Assembly (NCBI GenBank): GCA_963835575.1
Contig: CAWIGG010000002.1
Location: forward strand, 1 to 64,000
Direction: 5' to 3'
Length of the DNA: 64,000 nt
Origin: an uncultured Spirochaetota bacterium
GTDB lineage: Bacteria; Spirochaetota; Brevinematia; Brevinematales; JAOACQ01
Shown: in pieces, positions 1,271 to 46,200 of the stretch
Layout of the letters: each line of letters begins with the position of its first letter
Numbering within the stretch: the first letter of the stretch is position 1
The notes under the pieces: model-generated
What the model was told of the DNA's origin: nothing
Databases searched by the model: none
Seen by the model: the letters and a program-made list of their open reading frames with translations, nothing else
Program-made: the position numbers and the translations under genes

Positions 1271-1490
1271 GTACAACGGTCGGCGTTTGCGAAGTCGCTG
1301 AGGCTTAGAAAATGTTCACATTTTCAAGCCGAAGCGATTTGTCGAACCTTTTGTCCTTCTTCTCCGTCCTACCCGACAAAAGGTGAGACCGAGGAGCGCG
1401 CGCATCCAGCACCATTTTGTTCTGCTTCCTGTTTTTGCCCACAAAATGGTGCTGGAGAGCACGCACCGCAGCGCAAAAGCCGTGTTGGGC
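1271..1490 (-). repeat. attC-like site (220 bp, with extra internal hairpin)
   Basis: GTACAAC...GTTGGGC ends, complementary terminal arms, motifs shared with the other sites. Confidence 0.8.
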
Positions 1491-1510
1491 GAAGGTTTTG
1501 CCCATTATAA

Positions 1511-2254
1511 TTATTCGCCTTCTAAATGCCATTTTATAAATACAGAATTGTCATATTCATAAATTACTGTTTTACAATAAGTAATCGGACTGTTTTCATG
1601 ATATTCAATGAAATTATTTCCCGCTTTGTTGTATATGTTTAGGGAATAATCAATTTTAGTATTATCAGAAAAATATGTTCCTGATGAATTATTTGATGGA
1701 TATTCTTTTAATTGTCCGTCTCCATAAAATATATTAAAAATAATTAAATATGCTTGCTCAATTCTAATATCTTTTAATTGAATAAAATCTTCATCGTATG
1801 ATGATTCATTATCATGATGTGAATAAATAATTAAATTGCTATAATTAAAAGCATTAGTTTCAAAACCAGTGAATATTTGATCTTTATTTAATGAAAGATT
1901 ATTTTTGGCCCATTCAGGAAAAATTGAGATAAATTTATTTGTATTTGGATATTTGAGAAGATATCCATCAAATAAATATCCTATAATATTACTTATTTTT
2001 GTTGAAATCCAATAACCTTTCATTCCATCTATTTTATCAATTTTATCGATGCTATCTATTTTTATCTGTGTTGAAAATAAGACTTTTGATAGTATTTTTG
2101 AATTAATTGAAGGCTTTTCTCTTAGGAATAAGCCATTTTTGGCCCAAACATATAAATAATCATTAATTTTATAAAATAATTTTGGACTTCCTTTTGAAAA
2201 TAAAAAAGGAAAGGTGATAATTAGTAATAAAAATATTATTATAGATATTTTCAT
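1511..2254 (-). CDS. Exported SH3b-domain protein, cassette gene
   Basis: Signal peptide; YVWAKNGLFLREKPS...GYW...GYLFDGYL SH3b pattern. Confidence 0.7.
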   Translation of the reverse strand: MKISIIIFLLLIITFPFLFSKGSPKLFYKINDYLYVWAKNGLFLREKPSINSKILSKVLFSTQIKIDSIDKIDKIDGMKGYWISTKISNIIGYLFDGYLLKYPNTNKFISIFPEWAKNNLSLNKDQIFTGFETNAFNYSNLIIYSHHDNESSYDEDFIQLKDIRIEQAYLIIFNIFYGDGQLKEYPSNNSSGTYFSDNTKIDYSLNIYNKAGNNFIEYHENSPITYCKTVIYEYDNSVFIKWHLEGE

Positions 2255-2272
2255 CTTTTACCTCCAAGATGG

Positions 2273-3611
2273 CGGTCCGACTTCAAGACATAGGTTACAC
2301 TTTAGCTTCAGGACATCGGTAACCCTTTTTGAGTACAAAATGCCCTTGAATTACTATTTCAGTATAGACCTAAATATAAAAGTATTCAAGTCCATACTAC
2401 CTATCAGATTATTTTCAAACCACACATCCATAAAAGCTTTGCTTTTACTTTTTAAACCAATATGATAACCATCCAACGCATTTGTAATAAATACACGCCG
2501 ACCTTTATAATAAATGTAACCTCTGTTATTAACCTTTCTGCTGATGTATCCCTTGGGATATACAACCCAATCGGCTATCCCATCATAACTCCTAACCGAT
2601 TTTATATAGACCATTGCTGGTGTTTTCATTCCAAGGCTTTCATGCGGTCTTTCCTCGTTGAACTCTTTTCTCCATTCGTTGAATACTGCCTGGTGCAGCT
2701 TCAGGCTACCGCTGATTTTGTTTTCCAGTTCCTTTTTCATATCCAGGTGCATCCTTTCATGTGCTCCGTTCTGATAGGGAGAGCCGGGATCAATTCTGTC
2801 CAGCTTTATGCCCAGAGACAACCACCATGCTGATAGTCTGGTTAAACCAAGTAAACCCTGTGTACTGGCAAACGGCGGCCCATTATCGGATTTTATCATA
2901 CTCGGTAATCCATATTGCTTGAAGAGTCTGTCAAATTCAAATTTGACGGAACTAATATCACCTTTTTGCAGTATGGCTATGGATAAAATATATTTGGAAT
3001 AATCATCACGTACTGTAAGTGGTTCGCATCTTTCCTGCTCGGAGGTATACCACCAGCCTTTGAAATCCACTGTCCAGATATCATTTGGTTTTTTCGGTGC
3101 TACCCTGTTCTGTATTCTTTCCGGATGTATGTGTCGTCTTCTTTTCCTTAATTCTACAAATCCGGCCTTTTTCAATATCCTTTCGACAGTGCTTAATGAA
3201 GGAATTTTATTATCCGGGTGGTTCCTGACATAAACCGACCTGATTTTCTTAGGTCCCCAATTCTGCTTCGTTTGCTTGATACGGATGATCTCGCAGATTA
3301 TTTCTTCAGAAAGTTGATTAGGGCTTGAAAGCGGTTTCCTAGATTTTTCTTGAAGACCGGACAACCCTTCTTCATAAAACCTTTCTTTCCACTTATAACC
3401 GGTTTTTGTGCTGATCCCATATTCAGTACAAAGCTCGGTAAAGTTCACACCTTTTTGGAATGACTTTTCAATAAAAGCTAATTTCAGCTTCATGATATTA
3501 ACCTCCTTCCAGGGCATTGTCAGCCTCCTTAATGAGATCTGACCTAATTATACCTGGAAAGTGTTACCTATGTCCTGAAGCTTTTCCGTTACCTATGTCC
3601 TGATTTCACCA
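2273..3611 (-). mobile_element. IS481-family element
   Basis: Repeated subterminal TCA(A/G)GACATAGGT(T/A)AC motifs inverted at both ends. Exact ends are approximate; removing 2273-3611 restores the cassette-end inverted repeat. Confidence 0.8.
2354..3517 (-). CDS. IS481-family transposase
   Basis: MPWKE start, HTH, WTVDFKG, SDNGPPF, NGAHERMH (rve DDE core). Confidence 0.9.
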   Translation of the reverse strand: MPWKEVNIMKLKLAFIEKSFQKGVNFTELCTEYGISTKTGYKWKERFYEEGLSGLQEKSRKPLSSPNQLSEEIICEIIRIKQTKQNWGPKKIRSVYVRNHPDNKIPSLSTVERILKKAGFVELRKRRRHIHPERIQNRVAPKKPNDIWTVDFKGWWYTSEQERCEPLTVRDDYSKYILSIAILQKGDISSVKFEFDRLFKQYGLPSMIKSDNGPPFASTQGLLGLTRLSAWWLSLGIKLDRIDPGSPYQNGAHERMHLDMKKELENKISGSLKLHQAVFNEWRKEFNEERPHESLGMKTPAMVYIKSVRSYDGIADWVVYPKGYISRKVNNRGYIYYKGRRVFITNALDGYHIGLKSKSKAFMDVWFENNLIGSMDLNTFIFRSILK

Positions 3612-3621
3612 GCAAAATGGC

Positions 3622-3781
3622 GCCTAACGGTGCGGCTATACGACGTTTTGCGTCCCGTAGGGTTGGCGCGGCTTTTGCATCCCACGCAGCAAAAGACGTG
3701 ACAAAGCAAAATGTGTCCGCAGGACCGAGGAGCGCCCGGAGCCGCGCGAGGACGGAGCGGAACGTGTACGCCTTGTTGTAC
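3622..3781 (-). repeat. attC-like site (160 bp)
   Basis: GCCTAAC...GTTGTAC; very similar to 17730-17888. Confidence 0.85.
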
Positions 3782-3838
3782 GAAGTTTTCCGGGCCGAAT
3801 GTTTTACCAAAAAGCCGTAGCCAGGACGGCGGAGGCTT

Positions 3839-7455: not shown

Positions 7456-7619
7456 GTACAACGGTACAGACAGACGACGTTTTGCGGCCCGTCAGGGTTG
7501 GCGCATTTTTTGCTTCCCCGTGCAAAAAATGTGACAAAGCAAAATGTGGCGCAGCCTGAGCACCGCAGCCCGTAGCTTCAGCGGAGGGCGAGGAGCGCAA
7601 CGTCTGTCTGTTGTTGGGC
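7456..7619 (-). repeat. attC-like site (164 bp)
   Basis: GTACAAC-GGT-ACAGACAGACG ... CGTCTGTCTGT-T-GTTGGGC. Confidence 0.85.
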
Positions 7620-7672
7620 GATGGACAGTCCGAATTTATAACAAAAGATAGGAGCCAAGGATGGCGATGATT

Positions 7673-8420: not shown

Positions 8421-8598
8421 GCCCAACGGTCGGCGTTTGCGAAGCCGGCGAGGCTTAGAGCTTTGCTCTTGCCGAGCCGGTTTGGTGAGCCCTGCGTTGC
8501 GCTACTTCCGGCCTACCCACGGGAGGGCGAACCCGAGCACCGCAGGCCGTAGCGACTGAGCGGAGGCCGAGGAGCGGAGCGCAAACGCCGAGTTGTAC
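8421..8598 (-). repeat. attC-like site (178 bp)
   Basis: GCCCAAC-GG-TCGGCGTTTGCG ... CGCAAACGCCGA-GTTGTAC. Confidence 0.85.
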
Positions 8599-10724: not shown

Positions 10725-10899
10725 GTACAACGGTGCGGGCAAGCGACGTTTGCGAGCCTTAGAACTGCTCAGCAGTTCTAGGCGAGCAAATGTGGTGAGC
10801 CCTGCGTATTCTTCTGCGGCCTACCCCACGCAGGGCGAATCCTGAGCACCGCAGGCCGTCGCAACGGCCGAGGAGCGGAACGTTTGCCCGCTGTTGGGC
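10725..10899 (-). repeat. attC-like site (175 bp)
   Basis: GTACAAC-GGT-GCGGGCAAGCG ... CGTTTGCCCGC-T-GTTGGGC. Confidence 0.85.
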
Positions 10900-17729: not shown

Positions 17730-17888
17730 GTACAACGGTGCGGCTATACGACGTTTTGCGGCCCGTAGGGTTGGCGTCTTTTTTGCATCCCACGCGCAAA
17801 AAAGATGACAAAGCAAAATGTGGGCGAAGCCCTGAGCACCGCCCGGAGCCGCGCGAGGACGGAGCGGAACGTATAGCCGTTGTTGTGC
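17730..17888 (-). repeat. attC-like site (159 bp)
   Basis: GTACAAC-GGT-GCGGCTATACG ... CGTATAGCCGT-T-GTTGTGC. Confidence 0.85.
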
Positions 17889-29419: not shown

Positions 29420-29713
29420 ATGGACAAAGCAATTCAAGAACAACTGGACAGAATCGAAGCAATTCTCAAAGAACAGAAAGAAAAACCCCTGACCTTCGAA
29501 GATGCCTGTAAATATACAGGACTGAGTAAATCATATCTTTACAAATTAACCTTTCAAGGGTTAATTCCCCATTACAAGCCAAACGGCAAGATGCTTTATT
29601 TCACAAAACAAGACCTTGATACCTGGCTTTTAAGAAACCGTATAGAATCCAAAGAAAATATCGACCAGCAAGCAATTGATTATGTCACCAGGAAGGCGGT
29701 GTCTGGTTTATGA
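29420..29713 (+). CDS. Excisionase-like HTH protein
   Basis: LTFEDACKYTGLSKSYLYKLT...IPHYKP.GK.LYF...L..WL. Confidence 0.88.
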   Translation: MDKAIQEQLDRIEAILKEQKEKPLTFEDACKYTGLSKSYLYKLTFQGLIPHYKPNGKMLYFTKQDLDTWLLRNRIESKENIDQQAIDYVTRKAVSGL

Positions 29714-29796
29714 ATTTCATCTTATTAAATTCCAAAAGTATCATTATAGTAAATCTGTTACTTTATGATAAAACTTTTATCATTATAAATTAAAAA

Positions 29797-30840
29797 ATGG
29801 TCAGATTAGACAGTATAAAAATACAGGTTCGTGATGACTGTATTGATAGAATTGATAATAATTTTATAAAAGATGAGATTGACCGGCATAATATTAACGG
29901 TGAAATATTTGATCAGATAAAGGTTAAACGTATTATCCCTGAAAGTAAGATTTTAGGCTTAAAGGATATTAAATTCTTAAATACCGGCTTAATTAATATC
30001 GAGCTTTCAGCAAAAATTTTTAAAGAGAACTATCCCGGTTTGATCAACCAAAATAATATTGAATATATGGTGGATTGTCTGAATAAAAACAAAGCCGTTC
30101 AATTTAACAAGCGAAGATTAATTGAAACCGCCTCAGTGCTGTATTGTGACTGTACCCAAAATCTGGAAGTAAGCAGAAACAAACAGGAATATTTTAAGGC
30201 TTTATTCGAATTAAAAACAAACACGAAATATAACGTTATCCCTTACATAAAGAAAGGTATTTTTGAAACCATCATTTTTGAAAAAAATATAAGAAATAAA
30301 AGATCGAATTCATTTGAAAGATTGATAGTTTATGACAAGTATCAAGAGCTTGTAAATTCTATCAATAAAAATAAACAGGATGAAAATAAAGAGCTGGTAA
30401 ATAAATATTTAAAAATGAACGGTCTTGATTGGTTCGCAAATAAATTAAGATTTGAAAGGCGATTTAATCATTTTGAAAATATCAGAAAATCATTTTTAAT
30501 TAATGATAATTATTTAAATAGTGTATTAACCAGCCCGGAGAATGTTATTTTAAAATTATTTGAAGAAATCAATCGGGGTTCTAAAACTGGACTTTTCGAT
30601 ATATGGAAAAATGAAGATAAATTTTATTCTATTATAAAAACTGAAGGGTTTGATAACATTATTGAAAAATGTAATTATGATATAGAAATTATTAAACATT
30701 TTATTAAGCAAAAAGTTAAAGGAAACAGTTCTGCATATGTAAGAAAATTTAAGGATAGGATAAACTTTTTGATGAATAAAAGCGGCAATATTAGCAACAA
30801 CTATATTGATGAAATCATTGAATTAATTAAAGCGGCTTAA
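29797..30840 (+). CDS. Putative replication initiator (phage/plasmid gpII/X / Rep_trans-like)
   Basis: LDSIKI, D.TQN, LIVYDKYQE, LRFERR motifs; follows xis. Confidence 0.55.
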   Translation: MVRLDSIKIQVRDDCIDRIDNNFIKDEIDRHNINGEIFDQIKVKRIIPESKILGLKDIKFLNTGLINIELSAKIFKENYPGLINQNNIEYMVDCLNKNKAVQFNKRRLIETASVLYCDCTQNLEVSRNKQEYFKALFELKTNTKYNVIPYIKKGIFETIIFEKNIRNKRSNSFERLIVYDKYQELVNSINKNKQDENKELVNKYLKMNGLDWFANKLRFERRFNHFENIRKSFLINDNYLNSVLTSPENVILKLFEEINRGSKTGLFDIWKNEDKFYSIIKTEGFDNIIEKCNYDIEIIKHFIKQKVKGNSSAYVRKFKDRINFLMNKSGNISNNYIDEIIELIKAA

Positions 30841-30854
30841 CATAAATTCTTTTA

Positions 30855-31211
30855 TTGGACGGTTTTAGTTTTGTGAATAGTGAATTTGAAATTTTAAAAT
30901 ATGACAGAAACTTCAAAGAAATCCCTATGTCACCTTCTTCAATGGATGCCTTTTTTACAAGCGATAAAGCACTCTGGAAAGGGACTGATTCTTTCTTGGG
31001 GACAAGGCTCAAATTAAAAGAAAAAAAGATTGTAGAAGTAAAAACGTTTATGGCAGAATTCCTAACCCAAAGACAGCAAGAAGTCATCAGTCTGTATTAC
31101 TTCAATGGCAAGACTCAAACAGATATAGGTGTAATATTGGGCATACATCAAACAACTGTATCCCAGCATCTTAGATATGGTATTAAAAAATTGAGAATAG
31201 CCTTTAAATGA
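30855..31211 (+). CDS. Sigma70 region-4-type HTH protein
   Basis: LTQRQQEVISLYYFNGKTQTDIGVILGIHQTTVSQHL; start uncertain. Confidence 0.7.
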   Translation: MDGFSFVNSEFEILKYDRNFKEIPMSPSSMDAFFTSDKALWKGTDSFLGTRLKLKEKKIVEVKTFMAEFLTQRQQEVISLYYFNGKTQTDIGVILGIHQTTVSQHLRYGIKKLRIAFK

Positions 31212-31512
31212 AAAGGAAATCATTTTTATAATTGATTCTGATCTTTCATATATTTTCTTGTAAATAAAATATTATAGTAGATTATGGCATTTCCATATAT
31301 GTTATTATTTTTGATTTGACTTTATTGTAATTATGGAGATATAATATTTTTGTAATATGTAAATAATTGAATATTTTATAACTCTATAAATATAAAAGTC
31401 TAATATGTCAAAAAAATAGTTAGGCATAAGTAGGATAGTCAATCTTCTGCCGGAAAAATCGTTAGAATTATTTAGATGTATAATGATTAATTAAAAATAG
31501 AAGGAAACGGGG

Positions 31513-34467
31513 ATGACAAGAAAGGAAGGGCTTTTAATAGTTGAACAAAAAGTTGAGGATTTTCAAAAAGGTGAGGCTGGTTTTTTATTAAAGTCATTTC
31601 AAGAAACGGAAACCAGAGATCGCTTTATCGACCCATTTTTTGAAGCCCTTGGGTGGGAAATGAAGCAGACTGGTGTATCGCGTCAATACTGGGATGTTCA
31701 TCGTGAATTTTCACTGAAAGATGATTCCTCTACAAAAAAACCGGATTATGCTTTCAGAGTAAAAGATATAGGTGTGCCTCACGATAAATTTAAAGAAAAA
31801 TTCTTTGTGGAAGCAAAAGCCCCGTGGGTTTCTCTTACCGACGCAAAACCTGTCTTTCAGGCTAAAAGGTATGCCTTTTCATCTCATGGTAAAGCCCCTA
31901 TAGCCATTCTCACAGACTTTCAGGAATTCCGGGTTTTTAATGGTCTTGAAAGACCACGTTTTGAAAATCCTCTGCAAGGATTAATTAAAGAACTGGATTT
32001 AAAATATACCGATTATTTAGCCAAGTGGGAAATACTTTGGGCTAACTTTTCAAAAGAAGCCGTTTATGACGGAAGTATTGAAAACCTCGCTGGAAAAGTT
32101 TCCAGAAACACAAAAACATTAGACGATGAATTTTTAAATGATATTATTGAATGGCGAGAAACGCTCGCCCGGAATGTCGCTATCCGAAATAAAAACTTAT
32201 CCGTCGATGAAATAAATGAAGCTGTTCAAAGAATTCTTGACCGTCTTGTCTTTATCAGAAATCTTGAGGACAGAAACATTGAAGATGAGAATCTTCTTAT
32301 GAATCTTGTTGACCGCCAGGATTATGAGGACGCGCATTTTTATAAATGCATAATTCCCTTATTTCGCAAATTCGATATTGATTATAACGGCCTTCTTTTT
32401 AAAAAGCATTTCAGCGAAGAATTGGAGATTGATAATAAAATCATCAAGGATATTATTAAAAGTATGAGTTCAGAAGTTTCTCCTTTCCGGTTTGATATAA
32501 TTGAACCTGAAATATTAGGGCATATTTATGAGCGCTTTCTCGGTTCAAAAATCCGGTTGACTGAAGATCACCGGGCTAAAGTTGAAATGAAACCGGAAGT
32601 GAATCATGCCGGCGGTGTTTTTTATACTCCTGAATATATCGTCAAATACATTGTTGAAAATACTGTAGGTGAAAAAGTAAAAGATAAAACACCGGAAGAA
32701 ATCGAACAACTCAAAATATTAGACCCGGCTTGCGGTTCGGGTAGTTTCTTACTCGGAGCTTTTGATTATCTGATAAAATACCATCAGGATTATTACTCTA
32801 AACTTTCCAAGACCGCCCGGAAAAAATACAAAGATTACTTTTTTGAAACCCCTGACGGTGAAATCCGGCTGACTTTGCAGAAGAAAGGCCGAATCCTCAA
32901 AAATAATATTTTCGGCGTGGATATCGACCGTGAAGCTACTGAAGTATCTATTATGAGCCTATATTTAAAACTTCTAGACGAAGGCTTTGACAAAGGGCAA
33001 GCATTACTATTTATGCGAGGGCATATTTTGCCGGATATGACAGCCAATATTAAATGTGGAAATAGTTTGATTGACCGTGAGCAATTATTTTCTAATGACC
33101 TTTTCGGTGATGAAGATATTAAACCTTTTGATTGGGATACTGAATTTTGGATAGGTGGCTTTGACTGTATTATCGGCAATCCTCCGTATATCAGAATTCA
33201 GGAAATGCAAAAATGGGCGCCTAAAACAGTTTCTATTTACAAAAATATATATAAATCCGGCAGTTCAAATAATTTTGATATTTTCGTGTTATTCCTTGAA
33301 AAAGCCTTGATGCTTTTGAATCAAAAAGGGCTTTACGGTTTTATCGTACCAAACAAATTTATGCAGCAGGAATATGGTCAAAATATTCGAGAAATATTAA
33401 GCAGTGGAAAGCATATATTTCAGATCATTAATTTTAAAGATTTTCAGGTCTTTAAAAACGCTACTACTTATACTTCTCTAGTTTTTGCCTCAAAAAACCC
33501 AAACATTTCATTTAACTATGCTGAGGTCAAGAACGAATTGGTTAACTTTCATCTTACACAAAAAGACTTTTCTTCTATTACAGCAGATCCCTGGCTTCTA
33601 CATGATGAAAAAGATGAATTGTTAATTAAATCTCTGTCAAAATACCCTATCCTTGCCGATCTGTCCACCAATATCTTTGTCGGTGTTCAGACCAGTGCTG
33701 ATAAAATATTTATTCTTGATTTCATTGAAGAAAAGGAAAACTCCTATGTTCTTTATTCAAAATCTGTTGAACGTCAGATTGAATTGGAAAAGACTTATGT
33801 AAAACATGTTATCAGCGGTCTGGATGTAAAACGTTATTTAATTCCGCCAAAAAGACAATATATTATTTTTCCTTATAAGATTGAGAACGAAAAAGCAATT
33901 CTACTTTCTAAAGCCGATCTGGAAAACAACAGCCCGAAACTGTGGGAATATTTATTTGAAAACAAAAAAGTCCTTGAAGATAGGGAGAATGGACGTTTAA
34001 AAGGCAAAGGCTGGTATGGTTACATATACCTAAAAAATATGTCTTTACAAGATAAACCTAAATTATGTGTGCCTCGTTTAGTACAGAAAATTCAATGCAC
34101 TTTTGATGCTAATGGTTCTTATTGTCTTGATAATGTGGATGTCGGCGGAGTTATACTTAAAGAAGAATACAATCATTTATATTATTATATTATGGGGCTT
34201 TTGAATTCTTCCCTGCTCAGTTTTTATCTAACCAAAATAAGCACACCATTTCGGGGTGGCTTTTGGTCGTGTAATAAGCAATATCTTGAAAAACTGCCAA
34301 TTTATCTTCATTACCCGCAAGATAAAGATAAGTATGCTCTCTGTCAGAAGATTGAAGAAATGGTTAAACAGATTATAGAACTCAAGAAAGATGAAAAACG
34401 TTTGAAGGATGCTGAATTTCTTGAAAGAAAGATTGATGAGATGGTTGAGAAAATTTATTTGGAGTGA
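31513..34467 (+). CDS. Type IIG-like fused restriction-modification enzyme, paralog of 14643-17624
   Basis: Near-identical REase/MTase part and C-terminal helix, different TRD. Confidence 0.9.
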   Translation: MTRKEGLLIVEQKVEDFQKGEAGFLLKSFQETETRDRFIDPFFEALGWEMKQTGVSRQYWDVHREFSLKDDSSTKKPDYAFRVKDIGVPHDKFKEKFFVEAKAPWVSLTDAKPVFQAKRYAFSSHGKAPIAILTDFQEFRVFNGLERPRFENPLQGLIKELDLKYTDYLAKWEILWANFSKEAVYDGSIENLAGKVSRNTKTLDDEFLNDIIEWRETLARNVAIRNKNLSVDEINEAVQRILDRLVFIRNLEDRNIEDENLLMNLVDRQDYEDAHFYKCIIPLFRKFDIDYNGLLFKKHFSEELEIDNKIIKDIIKSMSSEVSPFRFDIIEPEILGHIYERFLGSKIRLTEDHRAKVEMKPEVNHAGGVFYTPEYIVKYIVENTVGEKVKDKTPEEIEQLKILDPACGSGSFLLGAFDYLIKYHQDYYSKLSKTARKKYKDYFFETPDGEIRLTLQKKGRILKNNIFGVDIDREATEVSIMSLYLKLLDEGFDKGQALLFMRGHILPDMTANIKCGNSLIDREQLFSNDLFGDEDIKPFDWDTEFWIGGFDCIIGNPPYIRIQEMQKWAPKTVSIYKNIYKSGSSNNFDIFVLFLEKALMLLNQKGLYGFIVPNKFMQQEYGQNIREILSSGKHIFQIINFKDFQVFKNATTYTSLVFASKNPNISFNYAEVKNELVNFHLTQKDFSSITADPWLLHDEKDELLIKSLSKYPILADLSTNIFVGVQTSADKIFILDFIEEKENSYVLYSKSVERQIELEKTYVKHVISGLDVKRYLIPPKRQYIIFPYKIENEKAILLSKADLENNSPKLWEYLFENKKVLEDRENGRLKGKGWYGYIYLKNMSLQDKPKLCVPRLVQKIQCTFDANGSYCLDNVDVGGVILKEEYNHLYYYIMGLLNSSLLSFYLTKISTPFRGGFWSCNKQYLEKLPIYLHYPQDKDKYALCQKIEEMVKQIIELKKDEKRLKDAEFLERKIDEMVEKIYLE

Positions 34468-34500
34468 TTGGATTAGAAAAAAGTTAATTGAGGTTATTAT

Positions 34501-35736
34501 ATGAATGGAAAAAAAAACGATCAAAACGATTTTATCTGTTATATAGGTAATAAGAAAGAAATATCCTTAGAGAAAATACGCTTAAGAATAAAAAATTATC
34601 TGGAACTGGATAATGTTAGTATTCTTGCCGGTGCAGGTACAAGTTTTCATATTGGCGCGCCTATAATAAGAGTAATTCCAAAAGAAATAAATGACTCATT
34701 ATTAAGCGATAAAGAAATAAAAGATTTTTACAAAATTAAAATAGATGAAATCAGTAAAGATAAAAATAACAACAAGGGTATATCTCTCGAAGATTTTCTC
34801 AATTATTTACAGGCAGATAGATTTTGTGCAATAACAAGATCAGAAGACATAACTAATTATGACATTTTAATTAAAAAAATTCAAAGTGAATTATTTTTAC
34901 GATGTAATACTCAGAATACAAACTTACATAATGATTACAAAGAAGATTCTAATTTAAAGGAAAATAGATATTTTTATCATGAGAAATTAATCAAAAAAAT
35001 ACTCCTAAGACCAATTAATCTGAGACGTGTCAATCTTTTTACTTCTAATTATGATTTGGCTTTTGAATATAGTTTTGATAATACAGGAATATATTATATA
35101 AATGGTTTTTCTGGTTTTCAGAGACGATTTTTTCATCCTGAATCCTATGATTATGACGTTTATTATCCTGGTCAAACTACAAGCGGAAAAGTGCATCGTG
35201 CTGAAAAAGTTTTACGTTATTATAAATTACATGGTTCTTTATCTTGGATTTTTACTGAACAAAATGCAAGAAATTTATATGGAATTGAAGAAATTTATAT
35301 TGATAAAAAACCAGAAAACGAATTAGTAATATATCCATGTGTAACAAAAAAAAGATTTACTCTCGATTTGCCTTATTCCGAATTATTCAGACATTTCTCA
35401 AATTCTATTAAACTAAACCAGTCAGTATTGTTTTGTATTGGTTATTCTTTTAATGACGAACATATAAATGATATAATCTATCAGGCTCTTTCAATTCCTT
35501 CTTTTACTCTTTTTGTAATTGATTATAAAGCTACGGATAATAAAGAAATTAATAAATTAAAATCTCTCAATGATCCACGTATTTTAATAATTGAAGGTAA
35601 ATATGCGAAATTCACTAAATTTGTTACTGATGTTTTACCTGATATATATGATGAAAAAGATGAAATCAAGATTACTGAAACAATGAATAAATTATATAAT
35701 ACTGATAATAATGATGAGGAAATTTCAGATGTCTGA
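34501..35736 (+). CDS. SIR2-like NADase of Sir2-HerA defence system
   Basis: LAGAGTS, FTSNYD, KLHGSLSW, IGYSFNDEHIN. Confidence 0.9.
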   Translation: MNGKKNDQNDFICYIGNKKEISLEKIRLRIKNYLELDNVSILAGAGTSFHIGAPIIRVIPKEINDSLLSDKEIKDFYKIKIDEISKDKNNNKGISLEDFLNYLQADRFCAITRSEDITNYDILIKKIQSELFLRCNTQNTNLHNDYKEDSNLKENRYFYHEKLIKKILLRPINLRRVNLFTSNYDLAFEYSFDNTGIYYINGFSGFQRRFFHPESYDYDVYYPGQTTSGKVHRAEKVLRYYKLHGSLSWIFTEQNARNLYGIEEIYIDKKPENELVIYPCVTKKRFTLDLPYSELFRHFSNSIKLNQSVLFCIGYSFNDEHINDIIYQALSIPSFTLFVIDYKATDNKEINKLKSLNDPRILIIEGKYAKFTKFVTDVLPDIYDEKDEIKITETMNKLYNTDNNDEEISDV

Positions 35737-37852
35737 TCGTCAAATAGGCCGTGTTGTATCTGTAGATAATTTTCGTGTTTTTGTAAAGCTTGATGATGAT
35801 CTAACAAGTACACATAAAAGCGGTTTTAATGACATTTACGAAGTTGCACGCATCAATTCTTATCTTATCATACCTGTGGGTTCAGATAGAATAGTAGCTT
35901 TAATTACAAGGGTCAAAATGCAGGAAGAACCCGAATTCGATAAAAATAAACAATCTATTTCACTGCCTTCTTCTTCCAGATATATTACCGCAACTATGCT
36001 AGGCACAATTGAAACAAGAAATAATAAAGAAATATTTATTCAAGGCGTATATAATTTTCCGGTTCTCGATAATGTAGTCTGGTTCATTACCGCGGATGAT
36101 TTAAATAAAATATTCGATTATAATGAATCTTCCGAGATAGATTATTCTAAAGACTTTTATCTTCCTATCGGTAATTCTCCAGCTTTTCCGGATTATGATG
36201 TGAAAATCTGCCCTGACCAACTTTTCGTAAAACATACGGCAATTTTAGGAAATACCGGGTCTGGTAAATCGTGTACGCTTACTTCCATATTGAAATCCAT
36301 TTTTAACTATAAATTTAAGACAAAAGTTGCTGGTCAAACGGAACAAAGTGAAGAATGTTATTTGAAGAATGCCCATTTTATTATATTTGATACTAATGGA
36401 GAATATAAAAATGCTTTTATTTCTGAAGGTGAACAATTCGAAAGAATAAATACCCTGGTTATTGATGATAAAGGTCTAAAAGTACCTTACTGGTTTATGA
36501 ATTGGGATGATTTTGATTATTTGTTTGAGCCGGGTTCTGGCACACAAGCTCCAATTTTGAAAAGAGCAATAGGATTGGCTAAAAATATTACAGAAGCTAA
36601 AACAAATAATTTGCTTAATAAAGTTTTGGAAGGATGCCTCGTAGAAATTATAAATTCTGCTTGCGGTTGTGAAGAATGGAAATTCAAAGCTAAAAGAGAA
36701 AAAGATAAAAATTTTGATTGTAATAATCAAATACTTCAATTATCAAAAGAACTGGAAAAGTATTCTGAACTGAATTTAAGAAATATTTCAGAGAAATTAA
36801 AAATTTTAGGTAAAAAAGATTTAACATTAACTGAAAAAACACAATCAATTAATGAAATTGAATTAAGTTATAAAAAATATAAAGAAAGTTTGATTGATCA
36901 ACAAATAATGACAGAAAAGAATATTGATCTTCCAGTATGGTTTAAGTATCAAGAATTAATTACAAAGTACATTGATTCCGCTATTGAAGAACATGAGGGT
37001 TCTTCTTCAAAAATTAGTGAATATGTCTCAACACTTAGATTGCGTTTGGAAGGCTTTTTTAATGACCGGCGTATTGCCGATCCTTTATTATTAAATATTG
37101 AAGCAGAATTTACAGAATCTTTAATAAAATTCATTTCATTTATCTTTGGCGATTTCTACCGATCCTTAAATAATAATGAAACCGATGTTTATTCAGAATA
37201 TTATAATCAATTAAAATATGATCAATTTGAAAATATACCAAATAAAGGAAAAGCAAACCAGATCACAATTCTTGATATGTCACTTATCCCTTTTGATGTA
37301 CTTGAAAATTTGACTGGACTTATAGGTAGACTGATAATTGAATTTGTGGAGCATTTTAAACCTGAGGAAAGAGGTCGGTATCCAATAGTAATTGTATTAG
37401 AGGAAGCTCAAAATTATATACCGGAAAAGAACAGGAAGGACCGGGAATCCATAGCAAAGAAAGTTTTTGAAAGAATAGCCCGTGAAGGACGTAAATATGG
37501 TATTTCATTAATAGTATCCAGCCAAAGACCTTCGGAATTATCAAAAACTGTGTTGTCTCAATGCAATTCATTTATCATTCATCGGCTACAAAACCCTGAC
37601 GACCAAAAATATATAAAAGGACTTGTTTCCAGCGCCAATAGTGATATTTTAGATCAGCTACCGATACTCCCGCAACAGCATGCAATAATCATGGGTGATT
37701 GCGTCCGTACCCCTGTACAAATGAGAATAAATGATATATCACCCAAACCAAATAGTGACAACCCAAGATTTATTGAAAAATGGCTTGAAAGTAATAATGA
37801 TTTTCCTGATTACAAAGAAATTTGTGACAGATGGGAAGAAGGTAAAAAATAA
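35729..37852 (+). CDS. HerA/DUF87 ATPase of Sir2-HerA defence system
   Basis: N-terminal HAS-like barrel, GNTGSGKS, LEEAQNY, REGRKYG, SQRPSE; overlaps SIR2 stop. Confidence 0.9.
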   Translation: MSDRQIGRVVSVDNFRVFVKLDDDLTSTHKSGFNDIYEVARINSYLIIPVGSDRIVALITRVKMQEEPEFDKNKQSISLPSSSRYITATMLGTIETRNNKEIFIQGVYNFPVLDNVVWFITADDLNKIFDYNESSEIDYSKDFYLPIGNSPAFPDYDVKICPDQLFVKHTAILGNTGSGKSCTLTSILKSIFNYKFKTKVAGQTEQSEECYLKNAHFIIFDTNGEYKNAFISEGEQFERINTLVIDDKGLKVPYWFMNWDDFDYLFEPGSGTQAPILKRAIGLAKNITEAKTNNLLNKVLEGCLVEIINSACGCEEWKFKAKREKDKNFDCNNQILQLSKELEKYSELNLRNISEKLKILGKKDLTLTEKTQSINEIELSYKKYKESLIDQQIMTEKNIDLPVWFKYQELITKYIDSAIEEHEGSSSKISEYVSTLRLRLEGFFNDRRIADPLLLNIEAEFTESLIKFISFIFGDFYRSLNNNETDVYSEYYNQLKYDQFENIPNKGKANQITILDMSLIPFDVLENLTGLIGRLIIEFVEHFKPEERGRYPIVIVLEEAQNYIPEKNRKDRESIAKKVFERIAREGRKYGISLIVSSQRPSELSKTVLSQCNSFIIHRLQNPDDQKYIKGLVSSANSDILDQLPILPQQHAIIMGDCVRTPVQMRINDISPKPNSDNPRFIEKWLESNNDFPDYKEICDRWEEGKK

Positions 37853-37987
37853 ATATAAATTTAAAACATAAAAAGCCACTTTTTTAAAATATTTTAAGGA
37901 AGTATTAAAAATGGCAGCGCTAACTCTAATCTCCGCAGTTATTCCGGCGGAGACAAAGATGGGATTCTTTTTCCAAGCCATATATTA

Positions 37988-38762
37988 AGCTTTCCTCGGG
38001 CACTCCCGAAAACTCCGGCGCGGTCGCCGTCCTTCCACTGCCTGCGTTTTCGGGAGTGCCCTCGTCAAGCTTCCTGTTTTCAACCCTTTGAGCACTGCCT
38101 CACTCTTAACATAATTTTTCTTATGGTCAAGCAAGCGAATTAATCGCACTTTTTTATACTGATATTCCTCTATTTTTTTATAAAGTTATTTTATAATTTA
38201 TTCTTTTTTCTACCGATGGCTCAATGGAGTAAACGCCTGCCCATAAGAAGAAATTATGTTAAGTAGCAAAGGATTTAATAATTTTTATATCCTGCATCTT
38301 TCTTATTCTCTAAAATCTTTTCTTTATTGTTGCTTTCTCAACCTTTGCTAACGTTCGGCGCGCTCAAAGGGTTGAAAACAGGGCTGGCGCATTTCGTTAT
38401 TATTTTCCACCCTGCCCGCCCGTATAGAATGAAGCAAAAAGCATAGCTTTTTTTATGAGCTGTCCCGTCCGTCCCGTAGATATTCTTTTTCTCTTTCAGG
38501 TTCCAATTTCGGGACTCCCCTTTGTCCTTTTTCACTTGTCAGTACCGTTTTAAAACCGTGCTCTTTAAATATTTTCACCCTGCCTTTTTTATTATACCGT
38601 GAGAAAAATAAAATAGTCCACTTCGCCAAGGGTAAAGTCGCAAGCTCCCGATTTAAAAATATTTTATTGTCTTAAAAACAGAAATGCTTTTTTTAAAAAC
38701 CAAGGGTCTTTATTACAGGTTAAAATATTTTTAAATCGCCCTTGCTATTTTATTTTTCTCGC
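37988..38762. other. Non-coding region with several long nested inverted repeats
   Basis: GGGCACTCCCGAAAAC/GTTTTCGGGAGTGCCC; GTTTTCAACCCTTTGAGC/GCTCAAAGGGTTGAAAAC; GAGAAAAATAAAATAG/CTATTTTATTTTTCTC. Confidence 0.75.
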
Positions 38763-38822
38763 TGGTGTTGTATTTAGTCAGGGTTAGAAATTTTATTATA
38801 ACTCAAATTTTAGGAGGTATTT

Positions 38823-39203
38823 ATGTCAGCTTATATTGTCAGCAAAGATCACATTTCTGCGTTAGTCAGTTTTTGTAATGCGAAAAATGTTTATGTGTAT
38901 TATGATGGGAAAAAGTTTGATGTCACGAATCTTGACGCTATTGGTCAGATTCTCGTGAATGAAAACTACCGTTCAGTTAATACCCGGTATAGTTCAAACG
39001 ATGCCCCATTTGTTTACGAGTTTCAATATCTGCAACGGCATTTTACGCTTATTCAGATTATTAAACTATGTCATTGCTATAATTATCAGTCATGTGAAAC
39101 GGAAGATTATTATGAATCTCTTGCCTATGCGATTGTGAGAGGTATCGAATCTCATGCTGTCCGGTTATTACCTGGCTATGAAGAAGCGGAATGGGGTTTA
39201 TAG
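38823..39203 (+). CDS. Hypothetical protein of phage/plasmid type
   Basis: Strong RBS AGGAGGT; EN.RSVN.RY, YQSCE, LPGYE.A.W motifs. Confidence 0.7.
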   Translation: MSAYIVSKDHISALVSFCNAKNVYVYYDGKKFDVTNLDAIGQILVNENYRSVNTRYSSNDAPFVYEFQYLQRHFTLIQIIKLCHCYNYQSCETEDYYESLAYAIVRGIESHAVRLLPGYEEAEWGL

Positions 39204-39256
39204 TTTTGAAGCGTTATTGAAACGGAATTGAAGCGGAGAAGGTCTCCTTAAGAAAT

Positions 39257-39298
39257 AAAAAAGCCCCTGCATTTTATAGATTTATGCAGGGGTTTTAG
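39257..39298. terminator. Bidirectional terminator between convergent genes
   Basis: AAAAAAGCCCCTGCAT...ATGCAGGGGTTTT. Confidence 0.7.
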
Positions 39299-39321
39299 TT
39301 TGCGATATCCGGCCGGGATTA

Positions 39322-39651
39322 TCAGCTCGGCATAAACGGAGTTGTAGGAGCTGTCCCATTGTTTGCGTTTTTGTAGTTTATATATCCGCTCACATACAGG
39401 TTAAAACCGCTCATCTGCTGACCACTTGCAGCACTATTCCAGGCGTCTTTTGTCGCCTGTGTTTCCGCCTGCCAGGCCGCTACCGCCGCCGTAAAATAGT
39501 CCCTGACTTTAAGCTGATTTTCAGTCTGGGGATTTGAAGGTACAGTATACTGCCTGCTATAGTTGATCCCCTTCCATTTTGCGAAAACCATCGTATCGGC
39601 AAATGTGCCGCTTGCGTCAAGGGACATCAAAGGCCCTGTTACTTTTGCCAT
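39322..39651 (-). CDS. Hypothetical protein (SG...WKG..Y.R...NP.T..Q..R..F family)
   Basis: RBS AAGGAGGT; coherent GC-richer ORF. Confidence 0.7.
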   Translation of the reverse strand: MAKVTGPLMSLDASGTFADTMVFAKWKGINYSRQYTVPSNPQTENQLKVRDYFTAAVAAWQAETQATKDAWNSAASGQQMSGFNLYVSGYINYKNANNGTAPTTPFMPS

Positions 39652-40159
39652 AGTATTTCCACCTCCTTAAAGGATATAATTTTAAACAAATATTTTTTAC
39701 CCTTTATTAATAGTCATTTTTAAGGGTATCGAAATGAAATAAATGGTTGAATTTAATCGGCAGGGAAGAATGACTGAATAAAACAAACAGGTTACATACG
39801 GAAAGTTAATAAATATTATCGGAAAGCAAGATATTATGGAGATCAATGCTGGGGAATAATAGGTTAAAAAACCTATTACGAACTATTTAAAACCCTTAAA
39901 AACTATTTGTAAAGCTCATTGGAAGTTTTTAAAACCATAAAAATATTTATGGTATTATTTATGATTATATTTATATTCTCTGTTTTCCTTGACAGTACCT
40001 TAAATTTGTCTTAATATTTAGGCATACTGTTAACAATACTATTCAAATACTTGACGGAGAGAATTTTCCGTGAAATCGATTTTGAAATAGAAATATCTGT
40101 TCTATTTATCATATTCTTAATTAGAATTCCGAATATTAAATATGAAGGGGGCGTAGCTT

Positions 40160-40708
40160 ATGATTAGTTATAAATTTAATGAAACAAAAGCAATTCAGTT
40201 AATCGCTTTTCTTCTTAAGCAAGATAATACAAAAGATTATAATAATTATACAAAAATTATCAAACTTTTATACTTGGCAGATAGAGAAGCATTAAATAGG
40301 TGGGGAAGATCAATAACAAAAGATATTTATGCAAATCTTCCAGCGGGGCCGATTGTAAGTGAAACTTATGATTTAATTAAGGAAATGAAAAAAGGGGCTA
40401 ATGAATTTATTTGTTCTAAAAATGAATATGATTTGGCATTAGTAAGTGATCCTGGTGATGATGAATTAAGTAATGCAGAAATTAAGCTACTTAGAGAAAT
40501 ATCTGAAAAATATAAGGATAAAACATATCAAAAAATGGTTGATGAGGTTCATCGTCTTCCTGAATGGGTTGATCCAAGACCTAGAGGGAAAAAATCATTA
40601 TCAGTTGAAAATATTTTAGAAGTGTTAAATAAAACAGATGATGAAATTAAAGAAATTGAAGTATCAAACAAAGAAGAAAACTATATAATTAATGTCTTAG
40701 GTTTATAA
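40160..40708 (+). CDS. Panacea (DUF4065/SocA-like) antitoxin
   Basis: KIIKLLYLADRE.L..WGRSIT.D.Y..LP.GP, H.LPEW.DP. Confidence 0.8.
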   Translation: MISYKFNETKAIQLIAFLLKQDNTKDYNNYTKIIKLLYLADREALNRWGRSITKDIYANLPAGPIVSETYDLIKEMKKGANEFICSKNEYDLALVSDPGDDELSNAEIKLLREISEKYKDKTYQKMVDEVHRLPEWVDPRPRGKKSLSVENILEVLNKTDDEIKEIEVSNKEENYIINVLGL

Positions 40709-40709
40709 G

Positions 40710-41087
40710 ATGAAAAAAGGGGGGACATTCTACGGCAACCCAGAAGGAGCCTCTCAACCCCATCTACACTGTATAATTACAGACTCATCCGAGCATAAAG
40801 AAAAAGGTAAATGTCTTTTTGTTCATATGATTTCATATAATGAAGGTAATCCGTATTCAGACCGTTCTTGTATTTTAAATAAAGGTGATCACCCATTTAT
40901 TACACGTCCAACTTGCATAAATTATGCTGCTGCAACGGAAATAGATTTAGAGAATCTTGAATTTGCTGTTAGTCGATGTTTGTGTGAAGAAAATGCCCCT
41001 CTATCCTTAGAAATCTTAGAGAGAATACGTGAAGGGGCAAGACTTTCTGATCATTTACCTAGAAAATATAAATACTTATTCGAATAA
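40710..41087 (+). CDS. Probable toxin paired with Panacea antitoxin (PemK/MazF-like fold suspected)
   Basis: Starts 1 bp after the antitoxin stop; HL..II, D.SC.L.KGDHPFI motif. Confidence 0.55.
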   Translation: MKKGGTFYGNPEGASQPHLHCIITDSSEHKEKGKCLFVHMISYNEGNPYSDRSCILNKGDHPFITRPTCINYAAATEIDLENLEFAVSRCLCEENAPLSLEILERIREGARLSDHLPRKYKYLFE

Positions 41088-41431
41088 AATAAAGAAATTT
41101 AATCATTCAAAGAAAGAATTATGAATTTTCATCATAATAAAATAAGCAATAATTATTATTTCTAAATATTGTGTTAATTTTTCGACACTATAAAAAGGAT
41201 TAAACAGAGTTTTTAGAGTCCGTAAAAAAGGCATTGAATATATTAAAATTAATAGTAAAACAATAAAATAACTATAAGGTTCCATTGTAAAACAAAAAAA
41301 TAACAAAAAAGTAAACGATATTAGAAATCTTATAATAATTACTTTTCCCTAAAAATGTTATTGTTTTGTTACCAAATAGGTTTTATAATTCACTTATCTT
41401 ATTGCTATTATATATATTAACAACTCTATAA

Positions 41432-41509
41432 GCAAAAACTGTGACAAAGCAAAATGTGGGCGCATCCCCGCAGGGCCGATAGGCCCGTAGCGTTTACACC
41501 GGGTTGTAC
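41432..41509 (-). repeat. Right part of split attC-like site (attR side)
   Basis: GCAAAAACTGTGACAAAGCAAAATGTGG...GTTGTAC continues the 26505-26592 half. Confidence 0.85.
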
Positions 41510-42118: not shown

Positions 42119-42276
42119 GTACAACGGTGCGCGTAGAAGAAGTTTGGCGGCCCGTCAGGGTTGGCGTCTTTTTTGCATCCCACGCGCAAAAAAGATGACA
42201 AAGCCAAATTTGCCGCAGGCCGAGCACCGCCCGGAGCCGCGCGAGGACGGAGCGGAGCTTCTACGCGTTGTTGAGT
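42119..42276 (-). repeat. attC-like site with IS1182 inserted at its GTT end
   Basis: GTACAAC-GGT-GCGCGTAGAAG ... CTTCTACGCGT-T-GTT|GAGT. Confidence 0.85.
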
Positions 42277-45054: not shown

Positions 45055-45086
45055 TTGTTTCCTCCAAAAGCTGATTGGGCAATGGC

Positions 45087-45272
45087 ATATAACGGCACAG
45101 ACAAGCCGACGTTTTTTCGGCTTAGAGCCAGGCTTGCCGCTCTTAGCCGAAAAAATGTGGTGAACTTTTTGTCCTTCTCCTCCGGCCTACTTCTCAAAAA
45201 GTGAACCTGAGGAACGGAACCCGGAGCGACTGAGCGTAGGGTGAGTACCGGAACGTTTGTCTGTTGTTAGCT
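45087..45272 (-). repeat. attC-like site (186 bp)
   Basis: ATATAAC-GGC-ACAGACAA ... TTGTCTGT-T-GTTAGCT. Confidence 0.85.
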
Positions 45273-45447
45273 GCTGTGCCGGTTGCCGTGTATCATGAGC
45301 ATATTTTATTTTTATTCCAAGTTTTTTTGATAGTTTTTCAACATAATTATGAGTTTCTTTAACAATTTTTAATAAGTCATAATCATTTTCAGCAGACATT
45401 TTTCTTTGAACAATTTCTTTATTTTTGATAATTTCATCTAAAATCAT
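45187..45447 (-). CDS. Small partner of PIN protein (stop lies inside attC)
   Basis: Same position as 7673-7831 relative to a PIN gene; RBS GGAGG. Confidence 0.6.
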   Translation of the reverse strand: MILDEIIKNKEIVQRKMSAENDYDLLKIVKETHNYVEKLSKKLGIKIKYAHDTRQPAQQLTTDKRSGTHPTLSRSGFRSSGSLFEK

Positions 45448-45451
45448 AAAT

Positions 45452-45931
45452 TTATTCCTCCTTATTTAGTAATTCTAAAGGTGTGATAATTTCAGGTATA
45501 TACAATCCCAATCTAGTATTAATAATTCTGATGTGTTGTTTTTTATTTCCATTTGCCAAATGAGTACAATTCCAGGTCAATAAAAAATCGATTTTATAAT
45601 AAGACGCATAAGATAAATGAAGTGCATCTCCACCTAATTCTTTAGGCATTAAATAATTGTCAATATAAATCTGTGCGATATCAAGAACATCTTTATTTGG
45701 AGGTAAAACGGTAAGTTTCAAAGCGTTTTGAAGAACTTGTTCTTTTCTTGGATAATTACTTTCTCCAAGCTCTTTTAATGTTTCTTCTGATAAGGATACT
45801 TTATAAAATTTCTTTTCTTCTTTCCACCATTTTTTTGTGATATCAATAAGAAATTGAATCTCTTCCCTTTCATCATAAAGAAAACTCAGAACTGTAGAAT
45901 CTAAATAAACAGATTTCATAAAATATCCCAC
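45452..45931 (-). CDS. PIN-domain (VapC-like) protein
   Basis: VYLDSTVLS, DALHL, LLTWNCTHLAN, ITPLEL. Confidence 0.85.
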   Translation of the reverse strand: MGYFMKSVYLDSTVLSFLYDEREEIQFLIDITKKWWKEEKKFYKVSLSEETLKELGESNYPRKEQVLQNALKLTVLPPNKDVLDIAQIYIDNYLMPKELGGDALHLSYASYYKIDFLLTWNCTHLANGNKKQHIRIINTRLGLYIPEIITPLELLNKEE

Positions 45932-46024
45932 TTATTTTTTATTAATTATAATACTAAAATGAAATTATCACACTTTTTTTATTGCGTTTTTTGTTTTATA
46001 ACAAAGCCAGGCAACCGGCATTTC

Positions 46025-46200
46025 AGCTAACGGTGGCGGACAAACGACGTTTGCAAGCCTTAGAGCCAGGCTTGCCGCTCTTAGGCTTGCAAATGTGGTG
46101 AACCTTTTGTCTTTCTCCTCCGTCCTACCCAACAAAAGGTGAACCCGAGGAGCGCAGGCGTCGCAACGCCGAGCACCGCAGCGTTTGTCCGCTGTTGGGC
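46025..46200 (-). repeat. attC-like site (176 bp)
   Basis: AGCTAAC-GGTG-GCGGACAAACG ... CGTTTGTCCGC-T-GTTGGGC. Confidence 0.85.

Follow-up and report, generated by a model that had tools for sequence, protein, structure and literature searches.

The stretch of DNA analysed here, referred to as the window, comprises positions 1 to 64,000 of contig CAWIGG010000002.1 (assembly GCA_963835575.1) from an uncultured Spirochaetota bacterium, and carries an array of gene cassettes with ten long, predicted folding repeats, an attI-like region and a gene for a tyrosine recombinase. When the array is read from right to left, the recombinase gene (353 aa, 46684..47745, minus strand) comes first and is transcribed into the array. 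It is followed by the attI-like region (46560..46683, plus strand; junction gcccAAC|TCTATATA, with the AAC at 46586-46588, 95 nt behind the recombinase stop codon) and by at least ten cassettes, each consisting of a gene and then its site. All 20 of the 20 cassette open reading frames (ORFs), taken as the longest non-overlapping frames outside insertion sequence (IS) elements and a large island, lie on the minus strand. The cargo comprises type IIG restriction-modification enzymes, a KAP NTPase, ApeA and a katG-dps-fur unit (i.e., defence and stress functions). The array region is AT-rich (25-45% GC), and the adjoining core genome, which begins with lepA at 48081, has a GC content of about 50%.

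The ten sites lie on the plus strand and run from an AAC to a GTT triplet over 144-212 nt (read from the sequence, with boundaries checked by script). From left to right, they are S1 (1271..1490, AAC at 1275 to GTT at 1486, 212 nt; subtype B plus one additional inner hairpin), S2 (3622..3781, site 3626-3777, 152 nt; subtype A with chimeric arms), S3 (7456..7619, site 7460-7615, 156 nt; subtype A), S4 (8421..8598, site 8425-8594, 170 nt; subtype B), S5 (10725..10899, site 10729-10895, 167 nt; subtype B), S6 (17730..17888, site 17734-17884, 151 nt; subtype A), the interrupted S7, S8 (42119..42276, site 42123-42272, 150 nt; subtype A, with an IS end touching its GTT), S9 (45087..45272, site 45091-45268, 178 nt; subtype B) and S10 (46025..46200, site 46029-46196, 168 nt; subtype B), which is the site of the first cassette and the neighbour of attI. 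The left part of S7 (26505..26592, AAC at 26509) is separated by the island from its right part (41446..41509, GTT end at 41505). Without the 14.8-kb insertion and one copy of a 14-bp duplication (26509-26592 plus 41446-41505), the two parts join into a site of 144 nt that folds as subtype A.

An earlier note on this DNA had described ten sites of 152-220 bp with the order AAC, about 3 nt (usually GGT), 11-bp arm and closing GTT. We recovered all ten, with the listed arms present and pairing, and the lengths agree with ours once 4 nt are added on each side. The motif AACGGT-N11-AMG occurs eight times in the window against 0.34 expected, a number reached by none of 100 shuffles, and seven of the eight matches are true sites (the match at 38954, on the minus strand, is no site). 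The spacer behind the AAC is GGT in eight of the ten sites, GGC in one and GTG in one, and the AAC and GTT triplets are invariant in all 36 aligned sites. The weak pairing that the same note had pointed out at 3622 was also seen: the two arms of S2 (3622-3781) are drawn from two different arm families, making the site a chimera. Elsewhere in the genome (contigs are designated by C and a number), left and right arms of different families were found at C3:3367, C3:385, C2:249171 and C2:1248079. Such chimeric sites likely arose via homologous recombination between the conserved interiors.

The fold was assessed in alignments of 10 subtype A and 12 subtype B sites, which were taken from the window, from other contigs of the genome and, for one site, from a related genus. 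RNAalifold predicts 52 pairs for subtype A and 44 for subtype B, with compensatory changes in 23 and 29 of them, respectively. In the pair count, 95.8% of the cells are paired in subtype A (24 pairs altered on both sides, covariation score 0.399) and 94.3% in subtype B (29 pairs altered on both sides, covariation score 0.565), and for either alignment none of 500 shuffles attains the covariation score. When the partner was slid by 1-3 columns as a control, pairing fell to 33-43% in both alignments. The covarying stem claimed in the earlier note is thereby confirmed. Changes on both sides affect 10 of the 16 pairs of the outer helix with the 11-bp arm in subtype A, and 9 of the 11 in subtype B.

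On the 5' strand, the 11-bp arm continues directly into a second helix, A(C/A)GTTT(T)GC / GCAAA(A)TGT. The earlier note had proposed two to three sub-hairpins joined by conserved linkers, among them GTTT(T)GC and GCAAA(A)TGT. An interior of several helices (two to four) is indeed present, but these two motifs are not linkers: they pair with each other as a single helix of 8-9 bp, in which one G.T pair is invariant in 10 of 10 subtype A and 12 of 12 subtype B sites. The extra hairpins branch from the 3' side, and one branch helix, in which purine-purine mismatches are conserved, is formed by the motifs GAGCACCGC and GAGGAGCGG. As a whole, the interior is long, contains several helices and keeps its sequence across genera. 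Next to the triplet lies a loop of 3 nt opposite 1 nt (5 opposite 1 in sites that we call "type C"), its additional nucleotides being on the 5' arm, and the pairs immediately beyond this AAC/GTT loop are kept and covary.

The strand that folds can be told from the wobble pairs. The supported helices hold 84 G.T cells, which pair on the plus strand only, versus 7 A.C cells, which would pair on the minus strand only, although this count is somewhat biased by the consensus structures having been computed with RNA parameters on the plus strand. In addition, the fold energy makes the plus strand the more stable one in 10 of 10 sites. Altogether, the substitution pattern indicates that the sites have been selected to fold as a single strand, and specifically on the plus strand.

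Pairing is not confined to the sites themselves. The right flank of a site pairs with the left flank of the following site, rather than with the left flank of its own site. Across the whole genome, at least 16 of 24 flank positions pair in 16 of the 24 adjacent pairs, versus 6 of 35 own-flank combinations and 215 of 2000 random ones, and the adjacent pairs that fail to match are located at IS insertions or gaps. In the case of S3, the right flank (7616..7640, plus strand) forms one half of the outer stem and pairs with 8400-8424, the left flank of S4, at 20 of 24 positions, and compensatory flank changes are visible between S6/S7 and S7/S8. The outer stem runs about 20 bp beyond AAC/GTT and includes, 7-8 nt away from the triplet, a T.T plus T.G spot that is conserved. 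This feature is absent from the earlier note and would form as a continuation of the site's stem once a cassette is circular.

Since the pairing partner of the flanks switches exactly at AAC/GTT, we place the crossover at these triplets; such a switch is the trace that cassette exchange of the integron type leaves. "Type C" sites add the direction of travel: all eight copies, some of which are assembly duplicates, have an identical right flank, and they have five different left flanks. This linkage implies that the site travels with the gene on its right (in plus-strand coordinates), which in turn locates the exchange at the left AA|C of the plus strand, so that every minus-strand gene has its site on its downstream side. 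The plus strand thereby corresponds to the "bottom strand" of integrons. Two other arrangements were considered and rejected. A crossover inside the conserved interior, prompted by the chimeric sites, disagrees with the flank switch and the attI junction, both of which lie at AAC/GTT. The minus strand as the recombined strand would put the spacer surplus on the 3' arm, in a canonical-like manner, but is contradicted by the site-gene linkage, the polarity of attI and the wobble count.

The attI-like region follows the same pairing rule, in that the 20 nt left of its junction pair with the right flank of S10. In both recombinase loci of the genome, a junction AAC|TCTWTATA lies 95-135 nt behind the recombinase stop codon, and the flank of the first cassette pairs across it. 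The second locus, at the end of contig C6, has a matching layout, with a recombinase 47% identical to that of the window and a junction AAC|TCTTTATA 135 nt past the stop. The C6 end (C6:425780-428166), C7 (C7:4200-5744) and C1 are assembly variants of this one second locus. C6 and C7 have a common recombinase and attI and differ in their first cassettes, which means that the locus either exists in two copies or is polymorphic in its cassettes within the population sequenced. Separately, C2:2028328-2028912 is a 99.3% copy of the window's first cassette (S10 plus 390 bp) together with 25 nt of the attI side; it heads a second array, at the opposite end of contig C2, and has no adjoining recombinase gene.

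An nhmmer profile of the nine intact window sites gave 49 hits in the genome, which fall into arrays at several contig ends and solitary copies. Between AAC and GTT, both included, sites elsewhere in the genome measure 130-215 nt (138-220 nt when 4 nt of each flank are added). For three of the six solitary sites tested, the complement of the right flank, ending in AAC, recurs 0.9-2.2 kb further on, with 20, 19 and 18 of 22 positions matching versus 17 for the best of 60 controls. To judge from these ends, the three copies are single cassettes at secondary sites.

To what extent do these sites differ from known attC sites? The latter are described as 57-141 bp long, with a bottom-strand fold, a 7-bp R box, 5-6 unpaired spacer bases per arm and an L box; on the L'' side there are two or three extrahelical bases, of which the first and the last lie 6 bp apart (PMC5027507). 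Their terminal structures are given as 20-100 nt (PMC4889954), and Treponema attC sites as 63-132 bp (PMC3607928). The sites described here exceed the canonical length, with 144-212 nt in the window and 160-253 nt in the related genome G006. In place of a 5-6-nt unpaired central spacer on each arm, they have a loop of 3x1 or 5x1. Extrahelical bases are absent from 25 of the 32 distinct sites of the genome, and the other 7 have one extra T on the 3' arm; some G006 sites have one extra A. The canonical pattern is retained in the AAC and GTT triplets, with the crossover at them, and in the strand, since the folded plus strand is complementary to the coding strand of the cassettes, as a bottom strand is. 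Agreement with the R box RYYYAAC/GTTRRRY is partial: its outer part is of chimeric origin, coming from the neighbouring cassette, but only GCCC, GCTT and GTTT fit RYYY, and GTAC, AGCT and ATAT do not. The outer pairing, at about 20 bp, compares with 7 for the canonical R box. The earlier note's view of the geometry as non-canonical is therefore upheld for spacer, extrahelical bases and length. It is not upheld where known attC sites were taken to be simple hairpins, since chromosomal attC sites may carry complex branched terminal structures (PMC5027507).

Known integrons provide useful comparisons. As a control, we used an array behind a true IntI of the same phylum, with sites read on the strand opposite the integrase gene. 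These Treponema-type sites measure 55-83 nt, their flanks pair only 4-6 nt past the triplet, and in the 55-58-nt ones the 3' arm has two bulges of one base each, separated by 6 bp; their integrase passes TIGR02249. Inverted chromosomal integrons of the Treponema denticola type resemble the window in having a recombinase gene that points into a co-oriented array with attI just behind it, AAC/GTT folding sites with chimeric boxes, and a bottom strand that is the better folder, all within the same phylum. The system in the window differs from them in its site length (144-253 nt), the general lack of extrahelical bases, the outer stem of about 20 bp and an enzyme without the IntI insertion. VCR sites of Vibrio cholerae are likewise long and conserved in sequence within an array, with a terminal part that can branch, but are described as keeping the R box, spacers, L box, and the extrahelical G and T that VchIntIA reads (PMC5027507). 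The present sites lack the spacers and, for the most part, extrahelical bases, and fit the R-box consensus in part.

Among families and solved structures, the recombinase is nearest to IntI, yet it is no IntI. A structure search with the whole model returned VchIntIA (2a3v) as the best match (E 3.9e-17), followed by XerA, and IntI (TIGR02249; VchIntIA, IntI1) is the closest family. The bit scores of the protein, 213.7 with TIGR02249 and 215.8 with the XerA model, fall below the respective cut-offs of 265 and 220, and no protein of the genome, which is 94% complete, passes the TIGR02249 cut-off. The difference is concentrated in the additional domain, that is, the I2 helix region around patch III: the array-side recombinases leave TIGR02249 positions ~181-234 unmatched, the window recombinase has 27 aa where VchIntIA (2a3v) has 69 in a two-block alignment, and IntI1 is about 43 residues longer across the IntI-specific span, whereas XerA aligns from end to end. 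In all 36 aligned homologues, the catalytic R, K, HxxR, H and Y are intact and the IntI-specific insertion is absent.

Most of these homologues also carry an N-terminal domain of about 60 residues. That of the window recombinase, about 66 aa, is a further difference from IntI and is modelled as beta-beta-alpha-beta-beta-alpha with a predicted local distance difference test (pLDDT) score of 79-93. A profile of the domain, run against a set of 36 sequences, matches the N-termini of Treponema-type IntIs weakly (E 2e-6 to 1e-5) and leaves IntI1 unmatched. A Pfam HARP match is weak, below cut-off and limited to one homologue (E 0.0013), a protein atlas search with the domain found only unnamed clusters (0.81-0.83), and PF22823, which is listed for many homologues, gave no match in a Pfam scan and does not serve to name it. 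In a quick tree, with few and long-branched outgroups and the FAM_G007 row left out, the family groups with canonical IntIs (the IntI1 type and four from the phylum) against six other tyrosine recombinases of the genome (Shimodaira-Hasegawa-like approximate likelihood ratio test, SH-aLRT, 93). IntI forms one clade (100), and the array-recombinase family is not resolved as a single clade. The diverse IntIs were drawn from a scan of the phylum, since homology searching with IntI1 yielded only its close relatives (74% identity or more).

These comparisons bear on the possibility that the array is an ordinary integron, in which normal attC sites with unusually long and variable terminal structures are recognised canonically by a divergent IntI. 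The AAC/GTT triplets, chimeric boxes, co-oriented cassettes, attI beside the recombinase and bottom-strand folding would all be expected of it, VchIntIA is the best solved relative, and branched termini are known in chromosomal integrons (PMC5027507). We nevertheless consider this explanation unlikely. The recombinase lacks about 42 residues of the IntI-specific region and falls below the TIGR02249 cut-off; the base pairs adjacent to the triplets covary, which leaves no 5-6-nt unpaired spacer; the 3' arm carries no additional base in 25 of 32 distinct sites, against two such bases in the control sites of the same phylum; and 144-253 nt exceeds the published 57-141 bp. The two departures go together, in that an enzyme without the part that holds extrahelical bases is found with sites that lack such bases.

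The pairing of this recombinase type with such sites recurs outside the genome. Of 40 related genomes searched, 7 have homologues at E <=1e-60, including 5 of the 11 from the family of genera and none of the 4 from the same genus. Where the contig extends far enough, as in G006 (8 sites, 160-253 nt), G008 and G007, homologous sites lie downstream of them in the same relative orientation. A true IntI by TIGR02249 occurs in 29 of 301 genomes of the phylum and in 0 of 11 of this family of genera. More broadly, 7773 of 8000 scored proteins match at E <=1e-20, a set that surely includes other Xer-like proteins. In 80 metagenome loci with recombinases 33-50% identical, the nhmmer profile of the window sites found no sequence relatives, and the geometry alone recurs. 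Specifically, repeated sites of 121-186 nt with the layout AAC-(4-5 nt)-stem...stem-(1 nt)-GTT occur in metagenome loci L036, L049, L050, L082 and L114, and in L036 the pairing of neighbouring flanks holds as well (about 19 nt). A geometric site finder, which is crude and yields a modest enrichment, gave 27 hits downstream versus 12 upstream of the recombinases in the metagenome loci, counted in the expected orientation, and 15 versus 4 when the longer spacer was on the 5' arm. The distant locus L001, from a single-protein search, showed no site by nhmmer within the 1.35 kb available downstream of its gene.

Integrons are described as very rare in Bacteroidetes (PMC9024848). A complete Chryseobacterium plasmid (L115) encodes a 36% identical homologue followed by non-mobile-element genes that are co-oriented in 10 of 10 cases, and its sites of 125 and 185 nt show the same spacer asymmetry. 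The plasmid also has three copies of a 140-nt AAC...GTT palindrome without spacer (13157-13296, 15252-15391 and 17633-17772), each followed by a 33-nt hairpin made of right flank and left flank back to back, which resembles an empty cassette. This array also contains a group II intron and an IS110 element. In a full-text literature search, with subscription journals outside its coverage, we found no description of a cassette array with an IntI-like recombinase lacking the additional domain, nor of attC-type sites of this architecture. Archaeal IntIs are reported to possess the additional domain (PMC9668308).

On the strength of these results, we think it probable that the ten repeats are cassette-borne recombination sites, counterparts of attC, of a non-canonical integron-like gene-capture platform. 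In the mechanism that we propose, the bottom strand of a cassette would fold into one long, imperfect hairpin of four parts. The first would be the outer stem of about 20 bp, formed from the two cassette ends, with its conserved T.T plus T.G spot 7-8 nt out; the second, the AAC/GTT box; the third, the small asymmetric loop, with GGT opposite T or 5 nt opposite 1; and the fourth, the 11-bp arm stacked on the 8-9-bp helix, with the conserved hairpins branching on the 3' side. The 11-bp arm occupies the position of the L box and may be its functional counterpart. The stems on either side of the loop would offer an Xer-like enzyme two full double-stranded half-sites. One strand would be exchanged with double-stranded attI, and the junction would be resolved by replication, as in integrons. 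In place of extrahelical bases, the choice of strand would depend on the asymmetric loop, on the G.T pairs that form on one strand only and on the branched, conserved interior, which the extra N-terminal domain perhaps reads. A structure-based strand choice without extrahelical bases would fit an enzyme without the I2 insertion.

A similar case is the attP(+) of the CTX phage, which folds to a hairpin that mimics duplex dif for XerCD; one strand is exchanged and replication resolves the product. As proposed for the window, an Xer-type enzyme without I2 there acts on a hairpin that rebuilds two duplex arms round a small unpaired centre. The likeness has its limits: CTX is a phage genome that integrates at dif, whereas the window has a cassette array with a dedicated recombinase and attI. 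The best reading of the sites and their enzyme would be a different way of reading a folded single strand. The different recognition code suggested in the earlier note is supported in substance, as an inference from the site geometry and the I2-less recombinase; branching alone does not set the sites apart from known attC sites.

Several points weigh against the proposed platform. Covariation demonstrates a folded single strand and fits DNA or RNA equally well, and the use of RNA parameters on the plus strand tilts the wobble count. The flanks of the S5-S6 interval are unpaired, arms are mismatched in five sites of the genome (S2 included), and the crude geometric finder provides a modest enrichment. 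The sites are set apart from attC by geometry, length and published descriptions, and a good score under the standard attC covariance model is possible. The I2 insertion is credited with letting integron integrases use single-stranded sites (PMC7790495), a role for which Messier and Roy (2001) are also cited. An enzyme without it may therefore work differently.

Another possibility is classical duplex recombination, in which an Xer-type enzyme would perform two strand exchanges at the cassette borders and the hairpins would serve, say, termination or cruciform extrusion. The Xer-like length of the enzyme suits this scheme, as does the missing I2, the element tied to single-strand recombination (PMC7790495). 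However, partner sites share the triplet only, with no overlap region of 6-8 bp, and the two sides of each border are not mutual inverted repeats. In addition, pairing is upheld by compensatory changes and one-strand-only wobbles, and the flank complementarity of neighbouring sites would have no role. We therefore regard duplex recombination as improbable. The least credible explanation, and a very remote one, is that the repeats are structured RNAs, or extragenic palindromes resembling repetitive extragenic palindrome (REP) or miniature inverted-repeat transposable element (MITE) sequences, unrelated to cassette recombination: covariation alone fits RNA equally and copies are scattered outside arrays, but Rfam at gathering thresholds gave no match at the sites (only two tRNAs in the window), every one of the 20 cassette ORFs runs antisense to the folded strand, neighbouring flanks pair across whole genes where a self-contained repeat would have flanks unrelated to those of its neighbours, the flank partner switches at AAC/GTT, an attI junction is present, sites lie beside homologous recombinases in other genomes, and solitary copies appear to be single cassettes with matching ends. 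For the RNA alternative left open in the earlier note, the wobbles, which fit the strand antisense to the cassette genes, and the flank switch, a signature of DNA recombination, likewise make an RNA role unlikely.

If the gene-capture platform is set in a wider frame, I2-less recombinases and their sites could represent a second, widespread and possibly older form of integron, of which canonical IntI would be a derived branch. In this second form, a hairpin with duplex half-sites, plus an interior read by an N-terminal domain that binds DNA structure, would replace I2 and extrahelical bases. We offer this extension tentatively, and rate it as rather less likely than its opposite; it is suggested by the quick tree, where IntI branches beside or within the family, and by the Treponema-type IntIs, which keep the N-terminal domain. 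Integrons are the classic example of recombination guided by the shape of DNA and not by its sequence, and I2 and the extrahelical bases are held to enable it. The platform shows the integron signatures (crossover, strand-specific folding, attI, co-oriented cassettes and cassettes at secondary sites) without either, and with sites two to three times longer than canonical ones and a stem that spans the crossover. Activity of the platform would mean that cassettes can be captured as single strands, or that such capture arose, in the absence of I2; that surveys built on an IntI signature together with the standard attC model overlook a whole class of gene-capture elements among relatives of spirochaetes, in Bacteroidota and in metagenomes; and that a new pair of structure-specific recombinase and site is open to study. 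With cassettes for defence and stress, the element shapes the accessory genome of its host.

Two cassettes deserve separate mention. The oxidative-stress cassette (3628-7461) holds, on the minus strand, fur (6925-7326), a dps/ferritin gene (6450-6920), katG (4217-6418) and a DUF4491 gene (3839-4165), with a GC content of up to 54% that is well above that of the remaining array. At 19734-19964, at least seven tandem 21-nt units lie directly upstream of an MvdD-type ATP-grasp gene (18491-19426), and this cassette may encode a repeat-containing graspetide precursor. The two tRNA genes (60155-60227 and 60278-60350) belong to the core-genome part of the window.

Mobile elements have also entered the array. 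The integrative island in S7 (26593..41445, plus strand, 14.8 kb) is not part of the system and is bounded by a 14-bp duplication (26579-26592 and 41432-41445). Its genes include a tyrosine integrase (26722-27816), an HTH_17 excisionase-like gene, a Phage_CRI-like replication gene, a type IIG restriction-modification gene (31513-34467), a SIR2 and HerA pair (34501-37852) and a SocA/Panacea gene (40160-40708). An IS481-like end lies 16-18 nt left of the AAC, within the outer stem, in four sites, namely that of window element 2300-3621 (S2, 16 nt) and those at C2:1248079, C6:415761 and C2:2040250, which suggests that this element may target the hairpins site-specifically. IS1111-attC elements are known to target attC sites. 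In at least seven site copies, the GTT directly adjoins, or is replaced by, the end of an IS1182-like or related IS element, including that next to window 42273-43900 and those at C2:2043958, C3:385, C3:6751, C6:417065, C2:2045218 and C3:3367; the crossover point is thus an IS target. Window positions 1-300 are a 99% copy of 43391-43690, so the contig begins inside this IS1182-like or related IS.

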